Shown piece by piece: positions 56,020 through 64,000 of a stretch of DNA of 64,000 bases (position 1 is the first letter of the stretch; every line of letters starts with the position of its first letter). The stretch spans positions 136,068 to 200,067 of the forward strand of contig JAWLBA010000001.1 in the NCBI GenBank assembly GCA_041395165.1, in the 5' to 3' direction. Source of the DNA: Verrucomicrobiia bacterium. GTDB lineage: Bacteria > Verrucomicrobiota > Verrucomicrobiia > JADLBR01 > JAIBCM01. A program made the position numbers and the translations under genes. The notes under the pieces are model-generated. The model did not search any database, had not been told where the DNA came from, and saw nothing but the letters and a program-made list of their open reading frames with translations.

Positions 56020-56679
56020 ATGAATGCATTAGCTCGTTTTCTTGCCAAGTTAGCTGCTCGCGCCCCTAAAGGTGGTCGTATTTTATTAACTCCTGCGGAA
56101 ATTAATGCTGCGGCAGCAAAAAATCTGGTCGAAGCAAAAGAAGCTTTGAGACAGGCTGAGGAGGCCTTGAGGAAATTTCAAGCAGGATCAGAAATAGTGG
56201 TGGATTCGGAGCAATTTGGAAAACTGGTGGTTGAAATAGAACGAGCCGATGCGCTTGTTGCTGATGCTGATGCTGCTTTCACTGCAGCTAAGGAACTTGA
56301 AGAAGCTGTTAAAACAGGAGATAGTATTTTTCGTCTTGGGGGCTCGGGTATGGGTATTAATGATATTCATGAGCAACAACATGCTGTACCGGCTAATCAT
56401 GATCTGGCTCCTGGAACTTATGAACAGGTTAGTCTTGATGGGATTGGGCTTGGTGCACTAGCCACTCTTGCTATTTACTACGGTTCCGAGGCTCTAAACG
56501 CTGTCAATAAACCCATGACTGATAAAATAATAGAGGAACTTCAACAACCTAGCGCCAAACTTAACCAAGCGATGAGAGCGGCTGACGATTCAGAAACTGA
56601 AAGGTTAAGTGGTAGCATTTGGAATAGAGTAACGATTCCTTCAGTGCCCAGCGCAGTAGCTGCTGCATTGAAGCCGTAA
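56020..56679 (+). CDS. Ala-rich helical protein, family A member 1 (219 aa)
   Basis: N-terminus MNALARFLAKLAARAPKGGRILL and C-terminus ..RLSGSIWNRVTIPSVPSAVAAALKP. See findings. Confidence 0.65.
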   Translation: MNALARFLAKLAARAPKGGRILLTPAEINAAAAKNLVEAKEALRQAEEALRKFQAGSEIVVDSEQFGKLVVEIERADALVADADAAFTAAKELEEAVKTGDSIFRLGGSGMGINDIHEQQHAVPANHDLAPGTYEQVSLDGIGLGALATLAIYYGSEALNAVNKPMTDKIIEELQQPSAKLNQAMRAADDSETERLSGSIWNRVTIPSVPSAVAAALKP

Positions 56680-56757
56680 TGGTCAATTTTTTTGGATTTT
56701 TTAATAATTTAATCTTGTTTTGAAGGCGTTATTTTTTAAAAATAACTTAGCTGCTTT

Positions 56758-57540
56758 ATGAGTGCTGTTATTATTACTCGAGTTGCAGAAAAGGTTCTTG
56801 AGCGTGCTGTGGCTTCACGGGTTGCAGCAGGCGCAACGGTAAGCGCTGTTGCCCGAGCGGCTGCACAAAGAACAGCAACGATTGCTGCTTCAGCAGCGAA
56901 TGAAGTAGTAGGAAAATTAATCGCTTCTGGTAGTAGGAGGGCCATGGTTGAGGCATTGGCCCAAAGGTCTGCAATAATTGATAGAATGGTGACGAATGCT
57001 TCTAAAAAAGCTGCTGCGCAAGGTGCTAGTTACACAGAAATTCGAGAGATAGAACGTGTTACAAGAGAGGCAGCGACCAAGGCGTTCCAGGAAGCTAATA
57101 CTTTTATCACCAATAATACCGCAGAGTCGGTGCCGCTAGAATTACTGAGGAAACATCAGGAGAGAATCGTTGAAATTGCTGCAGAAGGGGCGGTTGAGAG
57201 TTCTTTATCACCTGCCCATCTTGTTGGAGGAGTTATTGGATTTGTTCCTTTGCCAGGGTGGGATATTCTTGAATCGAAGGTTATTGAACCTGCTATTGAT
57301 AACATTTTAATTCCTGCTGCTTTAGCTGTGGTTCCGGGCTCTGGAGCTGCTAACGAAATGCTAACCAATCATCAAGAAGTAGAATCCATTCTTAAAGATC
57401 TTCGCAGGACAGATGATGAAGAGATTGATGCTGGGCTTCGTGAAAGAAATATGACTGATGTTTGGGCTGCTGCGGGTGGTAATACGCCTTCTGTCAATCA
57501 GTCAGCGCCTTCTCAAAATGGAGTTTCTCCAGGGATATAA
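56758..57540 (+). CDS. Ala-rich helical protein, family A member 2 (260 aa)
   Basis: N-terminus MSAVIITRVAEKVLERAVASRV and C-terminus ..RERNMTDVWAAAGGNTPSVNQSAPSQNGVSPGI. Confidence 0.65.
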   Translation: MSAVIITRVAEKVLERAVASRVAAGATVSAVARAAAQRTATIAASAANEVVGKLIASGSRRAMVEALAQRSAIIDRMVTNASKKAAAQGASYTEIREIERVTREAATKAFQEANTFITNNTAESVPLELLRKHQERIVEIAAEGAVESSLSPAHLVGGVIGFVPLPGWDILESKVIEPAIDNILIPAALAVVPGSGAANEMLTNHQEVESILKDLRRTDDEEIDAGLRERNMTDVWAAAGGNTPSVNQSAPSQNGVSPGI

Positions 57541-57851
57541 GAAGTTTTATTGGCAAAAAATACTGCCTATTGCTCGTGAAATAGGCTTGGAAAAATACGA
57601 GCTGGTAAAAGTCATCAATTCAAGTTAGGACGAGTTTTGAAATAATATTCACTCTCAAATTTGACAAATTTCAATTGTGTGGTTCATTGCCTTTAAATTG
57701 GTTTTAAAATTAGTTTTATTATTAAAACATAAATTAAGTGTGTTAAATTTGTATGTCGATTTTCGTTTATATTAGAATATTGGCTCAAGGATTAGTAAAA
57801 TTGAGTTGGCATGCTGGTGAATGCGTGTAACACATTATTATTAAATATTTT

Positions 57852-58016
57852 ATGTCTTATGAATTTTGGTGCCCTAAAGCTTCTTTTCTAAAAGAAACAA
57901 GTGATGTCACGAGAAGAGTACAAGAAAAAATCCGATTGGGTGAAGTTAGCCACCGGGGAAAGACGGTTGGTCACAAGTGCTATTTTGGAAGGTTAGAAAT
58001 TCCATGGCATAAATAA
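57852..58016 (+). CDS. possible small ORF (54 aa, two Cys)
   Basis: An ATG..TAA ORF I translated by hand inside a 540-bp AT-rich gap: MSYEFWCPKASFLKETSDVTRRVQEKIRLGEVSHRGKTVGHKCYFGRLEIPWHK. It is below the ORF-track cutoff. Confidence 0.2.
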   Translation: MSYEFWCPKASFLKETSDVTRRVQEKIRLGEVSHRGKTVGHKCYFGRLEIPWHK

Positions 58017-62176: not shown

Positions 62177-62337
62177 GCGAATCAAGAATAGAAACAGTTG
62201 CTTAAATTATTAATCCGAAACTGCTGCCCACTTGTTTATAAAGCAACTGGTGGATTTTAATAATTAAGCGTGATATAAAATTTGACAGAGAGCGATTCTA
62301 ATGTTTCTTTTTTATTAAAATAAGGGAAAGCAATTTT

Positions 62338-63144
62338 ATGTTTAAAGTGATAACTCGTTTATTAAGGCGTGCGGCGTTGAGAGCTGGCGGTAAACAGGTG
62401 AGTCTAACGAATTTGTCTCAACTAGTTAGAGAAGAGATTTCTGCACTGGGAAGAGAATTAGCTAAAATTGAAACTCATATCGAAGCACTTAAAGGTGGCA
62501 GAATTCCTGAGGAATTGATGGCGTGGACAGATGTTGCTCCCAGAATTCGGGCTATCGAAAAATTGCCGGCCTATCAAAGACCAATAGAGATGCAGAATTT
62601 AGCGAATGAAATTAAGACCCAGCTAGTAGCGGATCATGCAGAGCTGTGGCGCGAAATGAATAAGGCTGAGGAATTTTGGGAAATAGGATTAGGGGAAGGA
62701 ACGCTGCCTTCTTTGAAACCCGGTGAATGGGTAAATGGCGTGCTTCCGATTGGAGCTATGGAATACGTTTATACTGAGCCAAGTGATGTTATGGTTGGTC
62801 TTCAAAAAGGAGAAATGCCTTCCACGGCGGGGGCGGCTGGAGCTTTAAGCAAAGCGATTGTGGATCCGGGTAGCGCTATGGTTGATGTTGCCTGTGAGAC
62901 CATTCCAGGTTGTAGTGAAACGATTCGCGAAGGAGAGTCAAAGATTGTAAGAACCATTAGTGAAACGGTTAGCGGAGCTTACGATGCGATAGTGGGAAAT
63001 AATAAGCCATCGGGAGTTGTTTCGGCGGCCAAGGAACGAGTGGAACAAGCAACGGCAGCAGTTTGGCAAGCTGTGGAAGCAGGAAATCCAACAGTTCCTC
63101 CCAAACAGCCTTCAATCGGACCAGGAATTTCTACTGGTGGATAA
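62338..63144 (+). CDS. Ala-rich helical protein, family A member 5 (268 aa)
   Basis: N-terminus MFKVITRLLRRAALRAGGKQVSL and C-terminus ..RVEQATAAVWQAVEAGNPTVPPKQPSIGPGISTGG. Confidence 0.65.
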   Translation: MFKVITRLLRRAALRAGGKQVSLTNLSQLVREEISALGRELAKIETHIEALKGGRIPEELMAWTDVAPRIRAIEKLPAYQRPIEMQNLANEIKTQLVADHAELWREMNKAEEFWEIGLGEGTLPSLKPGEWVNGVLPIGAMEYVYTEPSDVMVGLQKGEMPSTAGAAGALSKAIVDPGSAMVDVACETIPGCSETIREGESKIVRTISETVSGAYDAIVGNNKPSGVVSAAKERVEQATAAVWQAVEAGNPTVPPKQPSIGPGISTGG

Positions 63145-63247
63145 CTAAAAGTTATTATAAAATTTGACGGGACTTTTATTAATGGTTTAATAGATCGACT
63201 CATTTATAAGGGAAATATTAATTTAAACTTTAATAGAAGAAACTAAT

Positions 63248-64000
63248 ATGGCTAAAGGTAAAGTTATACAATGGGTTGGCCGTTTGTTTGGAATAGCTCC
63301 CGAAGCGGATGCCGCAGCTGAAGCGGCGAGATTAGCTAAATTAGCTGAAACGGCAGAATTGGCCAAAGCAGCACAGGCGGCACAAGCTGTAGCAAGAACA
63401 GCGCGTTTGGCAGCAATAACTGAAGCGAATGCAGCTGTTAGAGGTATTCATGAGGAAATGAGCCTAGCGAATGGCCTTATTACTGGAGGGAGAGCATCTT
63501 CGGTAACGCTTTCTTCTATTCTAGGAAGGACAGGACTTGCTAGCACGAATTCAAAAAGACTCTGTGAAGCAATGAGAGCAATGGCGGCTTCTGCAGAAGG
63601 GACTTCCTATGCGAAATCAGCTGCAAATTTAGCTGAACTTGCAGGTAAAATTGATAGAGCTGTTGCCGGTGCCCAAGTAAGGGCAATGGAAGTTGTCTCA
63701 CATATAAGACGCGGTTCCGATGCAAAAGTCGTTGCTGAAGCGGTTGCTAAATGGACTACCGCTCAGGGAGATGTAAGTGTCCTCATGACAGAATTTGAGA
63801 ATGCGGCGGTGGCTTTTGAAGCTGAAGTGGGTAAAGAGGTGATAGCTGGAGGTAGTCTTATAGTGGCGCCTGGAATCGCAGGTAGTGATCCCAGTCAAGG
63901 TCGGCTTCCAGAACATCCTATGTATTCTTATTTTAGGCCTATTATTAATGGTGGAGCTGCTGTAGCTGATGGGATTGATACTTTGGTTTTTGGCACTGTT
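63248..64000 (+). CDS. Ala-rich helical protein, family A member 6 (partial, runs off the window)
   Basis: Hand translation from the ATG at 63248 is open for 251 codons to the window end. It starts MAKGKVIQWVGRLFGIAPEADAAAEAARLAKLAE... This ORF is not in the supplied track. Confidence 0.6.
   Translation, partial: MAKGKVIQWVGRLFGIAPEADAAAEAARLAKLAETAELAKAAQAAQAVARTARLAAITEANAAVRGIHEEMSLANGLITGGRASSVTLSSILGRTGLASTNSKRLCEAMRAMAASAEGTSYAKSAANLAELAGKIDRAVAGAQVRAMEVVSHIRRGSDAKVVAEAVAKWTTAQGDVSVLMTEFENAAVAFEAEVGKEVIAGGSLIVAPGIAGSDPSQGRLPEHPMYSYFRPIINGGAAVADGIDTLVFGTV

Follow-up and report, generated by a model that had tools for sequence, protein, structure and literature searches.

Phasin families are multi-copy, dispersed and weakly conserved, the cargo of encapsulins carries a short C-terminal peptide (e.g., ...LxIGSLK) on a flexible Pro/Ala/Gly/Ser linker, the cargo of bacterial microcompartments (BMC) bears an 18-residue amphipathic terminal helix, and Vipp1 has a flexible C-terminal extension. 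In PspA and Vipp1, an N-terminal amphipathic helix named alpha0 is reported to bind the membrane (PMC12358876). Components of ClyA-family alpha-pore-forming toxins are encoded by adjacent genes, share less than 25% identity and were recognised by their hydropathy pattern, the head of AhlB comprising about 25+23 residues (PMC6602965). The present analysis concerns six + strand open reading frames (ORFs), named A to F, found at the end of a 64-kb stretch of a Verrucomicrobiia genome (assembly GCA_041395165.1, contig JAWLBA010000001.1, positions 136,068 to 200,067), the whole of which is referred to as the window. They represent a real, lineage-restricted and rapidly evolving orphan family, which has no match among known families and whose proteins are Ala-rich and predicted to be almost entirely alpha-helical.

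The six ORFs, A (56020-56679, 219 amino acids, aa), B (56758-57540, 260 aa), C (58084-58587, 167 aa), D (61091-62176, 361 aa), E (62338-63144, 268 aa) and F (63248-64000, the first 251 aa of a gene cut by the window end), are all present where a first-pass annotation, made from the letters alone, had placed them, and the terminal peptides quoted there are correct. That annotation had described as shared features a basic amphipathic N-terminal helix (N-helix) and a C-terminal Trp-containing motif (W-motif). Both were evaluated with leave-one-paralogue-group-out hidden Markov models (HMMs), in which a profile built from the other groups ranks the left-out member among the termini of unrelated ORFs, the background being the 30-aa N-termini of 3,561 ORFs and the last 60 aa of 3,556. 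Relatives were taken from five contigs of closely related genomes, namely L001 (GCA_019694135.1), with about 86% nucleotide identity to the window, and the further related contigs L002-L005. Most members fall within the top 0.4-1.4% of these approximately 3,560 background termini. For the N-terminus, D ranks 3, A and E rank 4, B 8 and F 14 among 3,562, and the few "background" N-termini that outrank members are themselves unrecognised family fragments; the claim of a basic N-helix holds for these five members and fails for C (rank 937). The W-motif is clear in B, C and E (ranks 1, 1 and 7 among 3,557) and in relatives from outside the window (ranks 1, 1, 10, 14 and 121), weak in A and D (180 and 208) and absent from the orthologue of F. 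Combining the tests by Fisher's method gives a p of about 1e-15 at either end, an optimistic figure because the motif anchors were picked by eye. Per-protein shuffling agrees with the outcome of the HMM ranks, the motifs are kept in orthologues and in distant members, and in hhalign comparisons of small profiles most group pairs align C-terminus to C-terminus and N-terminus to N-terminus. Pairwise BLAST within the six is weak, with best values of E=0.005 for the N-termini of A and D and E=0.004 for the C-termini of B and C. With the exceptions just given for C, for A and D and for the F orthologue, the shared termini are real and not a product of chance.

The proteins had been described as related only at their ends, a statement contradicted by a central motif and by a bridging homologue. 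The motif h-h-G-G-x-G-A-T-h-h-L-x(2-3)-E-x-x-A-A-E is common to D (IVAIVGGTGATLVALRPEEVQAAEDLV, 61694-61774; rank 5 among 3,557), to the distant relative P0007 (rank 1), to L002_2 (rank 3) and to the paralogue at position 6226 of L001 (rank 13). P0007, a full-length homologue, resembles D in its N-terminal half and A in its C-terminal half (DLAAGTYDQVNLDGAMLGL, to be compared with DLAPGTYEQVSLDGIGLGA in A). By phmmer, it is linked to A with E=4.5e-4, to D with values from 1e-6 to 5e-22 and to a second distant relative, P0008, with 1e-13; the same program links B to C (1.6e-3) and the members designated G and I to each other (7.6e-5). Similarity extends to the upstream regions. About 90 nt upstream of D lies a ATTTGACA box (60997-61004, + strand) resembling a sigma-70 -35 element, and equivalent boxes on the same strand precede a decayed seventh member (57659-57666), E (62280-62287), F (63162-63169, ATTTGACG) and A (55967-55972, TTGACA). 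By eye, ATTTGACA is followed after 14-16 nt by a GTTTAATTGC-like sequence upstream of several paralogues, and the same combination precedes orthologues and paralogues in L001, L003 and L004. All three + strand ATTTGACA octamers of the window, plus one ATTTGACG, sit 60-95 nt upstream of family genes; the total of ATTTGACA octamers in the 64-kb window is not above chance, the sigma-70 consensus promoter scan did not call these sites, and a stricter composite promoter pattern was unmatched. Each family gene has its own promoter-like upstream region, which may act as a promoter.

In view of the homologues that bridge the groups, of the central motif that they have in common and of the likeness between upstream regions, the simplest reading is that A-F are divergent paralogues of one ancestral gene, which would have been duplicated along with its promoter. 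The gain of common end-signals by unrelated proteins fits the data less well than paralogy does, and common descent accounts for the conserved ends at least as well as a targeting signal. The most doubtful member is F, whose orthologue (L001 11254-12153, 299 aa, 57% identity over BLASTP-aligned columns) is devoid of W-motif and tail: it ends in "...NNSGWGM" and shows only a degenerate "RANLENAVEAG", with no Pro-rich tail.

In the typical order of features, a cationic amphipathic N-helix is followed by a highly variable helical bundle, by one or two short Gly/Ala-rich hydrophobic segments and, at the C-terminal end, by a Trp-containing helix (h-W-x-x-A-x-G) and a tail of 17-35 residues rich in Pro, Ser, Thr and Asn, which often terminates in G-I-S-P. 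This ending recurs in tails of different paralogue groups, in some of the members only, and the architecture as a whole is incomplete in some proteins, C having no N-helix. The features of A-F given next all lie on the + strand. In A, the N-helix (56020-56079) precedes Gly-rich patches at 56329-56367 and 56434-56484, the weak W-motif (56599-56637) and the tail (56638-56676). In B, the N-helix spans 56758-56820, and two Gly-rich hydrophobic segments (57217-57261 and 57304-57351) lie ahead of the W-motif RERNMTDVWAAAGG (57439-57480) and the tail (57481-57537). Instead of a basic N-helix, C contains two Ala/Gly/Thr-rich hydrophobic segments (58123-58191 and 58324-58392), upstream of the W-motif NRGNMEGIWKAAANG (58489-58533) and the tail (58534-58584). 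D, the longest complete member, comprises the N-helix (61091-61147), a predicted variable four-helix bundle (aa 3-205), the central motif, a second Gly-rich region (61877-61966), the W-helix RMRANVEAAWKALDE (62042-62086) and the tail (62087-62173). The N-helix of E, MFKVITRLLRRAALRAGGK (62338-62394), is followed by Gly-rich segments at 62731-62772 and 62815-62862, by the W-motif (63034-63084) and by a tail ending in "...PSIGPGISTGG" (63085-63141). The visible part of F shows the N-helix (63248-63301) and a Gly-rich hydrophobic patch (63836-63886).

The first 25 residues of the proteins have a net charge of 0 to +6 and a hydrophobic moment of 0.3-0.67, and in A, B, D, E and F, where the charge is positive, they would form an amphipathic helix. 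No Sec or Tat signal peptide was found, the N-termini being broken by basic residues every 3-4 positions; with the exception of C, no N-terminal window reaches a Kyte-Doolittle (KD) value of 1.6, and the RR of E is not kept in its orthologue. The proteins show no convincing transmembrane segment, only marginal hydrophobic windows: the hydrophobic patches span 13-18 residues, and a 19-residue window at KD>=1.6 is missing from most members. Cys pairs are conserved in D and E and apparently also in the G-type member. The six family proteins contain 17.3% Ala, vs 8.5% in 26 other window proteins. Their middles had been described as looking like coiled coils; for D, the prediction is a helical bundle and not a canonical coiled coil. 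An AlphaFold2 model of D, based on a five-sequence alignment, has an overall predicted local distance difference test (pLDDT) score of 64.5. Between aa 3 and 205 it shows four helices, each about 45 residues long (pLDDT 70-89), with the N-helix running on into the bundle; the Gly-rich patch 207-216 sits where the chain turns towards the next helix, and confidence is low for the conserved C-terminal half. The model of E (pLDDT 48.7) is unusable.

The family differs from its neighbours in its rate of change, expressed here as the ratio of nonsynonymous to synonymous substitution rates (dN/dS) between the window and L001. The cluster is split by a conserved housekeeping block (58654-60885) encoding a methyltransferase, a 128-aa protein and the hopanoid radical-SAM enzyme HpnH. 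The last of these is 98-99% identical between relatives, with a dN/dS of 0.02, and other neighbours give 0.08-0.18, or 0.31 for one small ORF. Among the family members, B is 80% identical to its counterpart (L001 5232-6014; dN/dS 0.26), C is 74% identical to its orthologue in L001 and 44% to that in L003 (0.54), D shows 45-52% identity between relatives and 90% in L001 (0.24), and F has a dN/dS of 0.55; for E, 43% identical between relatives, no dN/dS is available since the gene is absent from L001. Across genomes, the N-terminal bundle of D and E is far more variable, and the C-terminal half strongly conserved.

Gene content changes as well. A and E are both missing from L001, where a seventh member, a 226-aa gene (L001 6226-6906), is intact. 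In the window, its orthologue is a decayed remnant (57753-58016, + strand), in which about 440 bp are deleted (blastn break at window 57804/57856 vs L001 6277/6719), the N-helix codons are kept (MSIFVYIRILAQGLVKL...) and the C-terminal piece is frameshifted (FWCPKASFLKETSDV...). L004 carries D in two tandem copies (1626-3871) with N-terminal halves only about 25% identical, and one of them shares its tail with the D of another genome, a sign of probable recombination. The orthologues of E and G are split in L002 and L003; in L002, that of E (4711-5462) consists of a 54-aa and a 195-aa ORF, and a G-like gene (6876-7342) of 51-aa and 83-aa pieces. The family evolves by rapid birth-and-death, by module recombination and under relaxed, not absent, purifying selection. 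Its G+C content is close to the window average, and in this respect nothing about the region suggests an island of recent acquisition.

Outside these genomes, relatives are very few. E is 100% identical to NCBI R3F23_01025, a protein from a Verrucomicrobiia metagenome-assembled genome. A first search returned four relatives of D, and the two distant ones, P0007 and P0008, came from scanning 1.84 billion representatives with HMMER; D-like proteins form only five clusters among these representatives, and a profile of D, A, P0007 and P0008 found no additional member among 5.8 billion proteins. No relatives of D were detected in GTDB genomes, none of D or E in JGI metagenome contigs and none of D, E or B in IMG/VR; exact-protein look-ups of D and E in a contig index gave no match, and PHROGs and PADLOC yielded only coiled-coil noise (E>=0.007). 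Likewise, no family member occurs at 80 HpnH loci of other bacteria, where the closest reference HpnH is 83% identical and where the pair of HpnH and the 128-aa protein is retained. In the organism encoding P0007 and P0008, which is more distant, the members are single genes flanked by thiamine-biosynthesis or ribonucleotide-reductase genes; the family therefore has no conserved partner gene. The literature on the accessions and on Verrucomicrobia effectors was uninformative. The family is so far known only from a narrow group of uncultured Verrucomicrobiia.

No significant match to a described family was obtained. Searches of Pfam and NCBIfam with all six proteins gave nothing significant, and no match at E<=1 was obtained with the models Phasin, Phasin_2, PhaP_Bmeg, Apolipoprotein and ApoLp-III, with PF04012 (PspA/IM30), with the Pfam models of LEA proteins or with HlyE and Bacillus_HBL. 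A placement in a characterised family, such as the phasins, PspA/IM30 or the apolipoproteins, would have told against the reading of the first-pass annotation, as would terminal motifs that do not exceed background or are not kept in orthologues; none of these outcomes was observed. Sequence and profile searches of the PDB with D, B, E and the F orthologue returned nothing below E 0.14, and no ClyA-family chain. Foldseek found nothing at E<=1e-3 for the D model in PDB or BFVD; PspA and ESCRT-III structures are outside the top 50 PDB fold matches, and a phage PspA model comes eighth in BFVD (E=0.083). In agreement with that annotation, no secretion, shell or compartment genes were seen among the scanned ORFs of the window: the Pfam families of the encapsulin HK97 fold, BMC-H and BMC-P are missing from the 46 scanned non-family ORFs and from the precomputed Pfam matches of the relatives' flanks, and genes for secretion, compartments, chaperones or the type III secretion system (T3SS) apparatus were seen neither among the scanned window ORFs nor in those flanks. 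Genes for polyhydroxyalkanoate (PHA) or lipid bodies are also missing among the scanned ORFs. No family under consideration agrees with A-F in all of the defining features that were tested. Sec/Tat substrates, flagellin-like axial proteins, WXG100 substrates of type VII secretion, R-body proteins and Inc proteins were rejected, with no model matches or defining features, and the idea that the family works together with hpnH, the hopanoid gene, was dropped, the synteny being lineage-specific only.

With regard to function, the preferred reading, which can be held only tentatively, is that the family consists of peripheral membrane-binding or partly inserting helical-bundle proteins, with ends that reflect shared ancestry and mechanics. 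The site of action of such proteins would be a lipid surface: the N-terminal helix would dock on an anionic membrane, the Gly-rich hydrophobic turn would dip into the bilayer in the manner of PspA/Vipp1 or of ClyA-type alpha-pore-forming toxins, and the W-helix with its tail might provide a common interaction handle. The conserved ends would record common descent and common mechanics rather than a demonstrated sorting signal. The proposal is based on the cationic amphipathic N-termini (charge up to +6, moment up to 0.67) in proteins with no signal peptide and no strong transmembrane segment, on the Gly-rich turn of the D model, on the weak fold matches to ClyA, AhlC and SmhA, on the comparable Gly/Ala-rich hydrophobic stretch that ClyA has at an equal relative position, and on the precedent of the adjacent, weakly similar components of the ClyA family. 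The likeness to ClyA-type toxins or PspA would be one of architecture only. With PspA/IM30/Vipp1 (bacterial ESCRT-III), the family shares, by sequence, an N-terminal amphipathic helix before long helical hairpins, and N-termini such as MGAGDILVRVAARAGSRA are similar in style; PspA is, however, conserved and single-copy, whereas the family is multi-copy and hypervariable, and neither sequence nor fold is common to the two. Several results weigh against a membrane-acting bundle. The hydrophobic patches are mostly below KD 1.6 and shorter than the AhlB head; the PspA and phasin Pfam models do not match; hhalign of A2 against E. coli ClyA gave a probability of only 0.15; the Foldseek PDB matches all have E>0.009 and template modelling (TM) scores of 0.15-0.3, and stand side by side with microtubule inner proteins and helical bundles of artificial design; the conserved C-terminal halves of D and E are modelled at low confidence; and C has no N-terminal helix. 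If proteins of this family did act on membranes, they would be the counterpart, orphan in sequence, of alpha-helical proteins that bind or insert into membranes, in a branch of the Verrucomicrobiia of which little is known, and would show diversification by the swapping of a variable bundle onto a conserved C-terminal half.

The constant ends had originally been compared with the signals of cargo or effector families, and an alternative, which seems unlikely, is that the N-helix and/or the W-helix with its Pro-rich tail are sorting signals that deliver diversifying effectors or cargo to a secretion system, a protein compartment or host mitochondria. The motifs are significant and kept in distant members, G-I-S-P endings recur across paralogue groups, Cys pairs are conserved in D, E and apparently the G-type member, fast evolution and gene turnover would suit host- or competitor-facing proteins, and the N-termini, Arg/Ala/Leu-rich with few acidic residues, resemble mitochondrial presequences. 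The idea draws mainly on the recurring G-I-S-P ending and on a similar W-motif and tail that occurs twice in the unrelated, non-helical ORF 34054-34782, the latter match having only E=0.21. Shared descent, together with the central motif and the promoter, explains the ends without any signal; moreover, no secretion, shell or chaperone genes were seen among the scanned window ORFs or in the relatives' flanks, members stand as isolated single genes in another organism, and the window encodes ordinary free-living housekeeping functions. In comparison with encapsulin and BMC cargo, the Pro-rich tail ending in ...SxGISP and the amphipathic N-terminal helix are alike, whereas an enzyme domain and a neighbouring shell gene are lacking, G-I-S-P is confined to some members and the N-helix continues into the bundle in the D model. 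Chlamydial Inc proteins and effector arrays of the Planctomycetes-Verrucomicrobia-Chlamydiae (PVC) superphylum, to which both phyla belong, are similarly lineage-specific, tandem, rapidly diverging and known by a hydrophobic segment and terminal features; the family proteins, however, have no bilobed hydrophobic domain of 40-60 residues, no T3SS genes were seen, and the gene content of the window looks free-living. Just as unlikely is the fullest form of the idea, a previously undescribed lineage-specific sorting code that would be read by an export or assembly machine or, in symbiosis, by host mitochondria, would deliver recombining effectors and would have a tail portable to unrelated proteins such as ORF 34054-34782. 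If these ends were sorting signals, they would point to a way of transport or assembly not yet described in the PVC superphylum. An equally doubtful proposal is that of an abundant coat or scaffold on granules or intracellular surfaces, in the manner of phasins, apolipoproteins or LEA proteins, with amphipathic Ala-rich helices covering a hydrophobic body. It is consistent with the Ala content of 17%, the all-helical prediction, the lack of a signal peptide and the several paralogues, each with a consensus-like -35 box and dispersed like those of phasins. The conserved Cys pairs, Trp and Gly motifs and Pro-rich tails are nevertheless atypical of phasins, no phasin, apolipoprotein or LEA model matches, PHA and lipid-body genes were not seen among the scanned window ORFs, and the hpnH link amounts to lineage-specific synteny.

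That the genes encode secreted multi-component alpha-pore-forming toxins of the ClyA/Hbl/Ahl/Mak kind, directed against grazers or competitors, appears improbable. As in ClyA/HlyE, Hbl/Nhe, AhlABC, SmhABC and MakABE, adjacent paralogous genes encode helical proteins (here of about 170-360 aa) of very low mutual identity, and the family evolves fast; predicted long-helix bundles, an N-terminal amphipathic helix and, as in ClyA, the lack of a classical signal peptide are also in common, and a comparable mid-sequence Gly/Ala-rich hydrophobic stretch lies at the same relative position as in ClyA, about 0.5-0.6 of the length. ClyA, AhlC and SmhA recur among the best Foldseek matches, which are weak (E 0.07-0.25, TM 0.15-0.25, for a query model of pLDDT 64.5) and not significant, and the sequence and profile tests are negative. 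Unlike those toxins, the family has a hydrophobic stretch too short to span a bilayer and an additional W-helix with Pro/Ser/Thr tail, and its copy number varies freely between sister genomes, with singletons elsewhere, which is a poor fit with an obligate multi-component toxin. Least credible of all is that the similarity merely reflects the composition of Ala-rich low-complexity ORFs, or that the genes are non-functional decaying ORFans. Pairwise BLAST is indeed weak, several copies are pseudogenised, and A and D, taken singly, fail the W-motif test, but this explanation is already largely refuted by leave-one-out ranks far above background, by the significant bridging homologues and by dN/dS values of 0.24-0.55, which indicate that selection is still purifying; in addition, the C-terminal halves of D and E remain strongly conserved where the N-terminal halves have diverged. 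At present, the family can serve to mark variation at strain level and offers a target to structure prediction and meta-omics, but it is not yet a mechanistic discovery.

Some other features of the window deserve mention. ORF 34054-34782 (+ strand) encodes 242 aa, has no Pfam match and is not Ala-rich; its two family-like copies of a W-motif with a Pro/Ser/Thr/Asn tail are internal (KNDMELIWEQAALPTTSNTPPAP) and C-terminal (RTRMDVIWDKAASSAPQNANPAPNVAPVVH), and it is the best non-family match of the last 45 aa of C among 7,203 ORFs (E=0.21). It lies in a low-GC island (27785-36587, 0.35-0.40) of nine consecutive ORFs without Pfam matches, among them four paralogues that begin with a Sec-like signal peptide, "MKKITQ..." (27785, the truncated 29058, 30294 and 31986), and a pair of paralogues (32787 and 33331) with a common "KNPLSF". 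Two orphan proteins of 562 and 512 aa (2834-4522 and 35049-36587, + strand) appear by eye to be paralogues of each other, sharing "...VTHEP.D...FKDGNE.A...ITMIMGGGNH..." and both ending in "...LVP".

Upstream of A, on the - strand, a 101-aa orphan (53879-54184), 94% conserved in L001, ends in "...VPPISF" and contains a segment, LDQAAAASKQTPNRAISP, that resembles the tail of D (LDEQQAAAAKQTSNGATP). Between this ORF and nagA lies an IS200-like transposase (54256-54684, - strand; Y1_Tnp, E=2e-28), in a stretch without counterpart in L001 (window 54225-54754 unaligned). Finally, the 128-aa protein next to hpnH (59454-59840, - strand), which belongs to no significant Pfam family, is found immediately beside HpnH in ten other Verrucomicrobiota genomes (loci L015-L024) with 35-54% identity, which makes it a probable conserved partner of this hopanoid side-chain enzyme.

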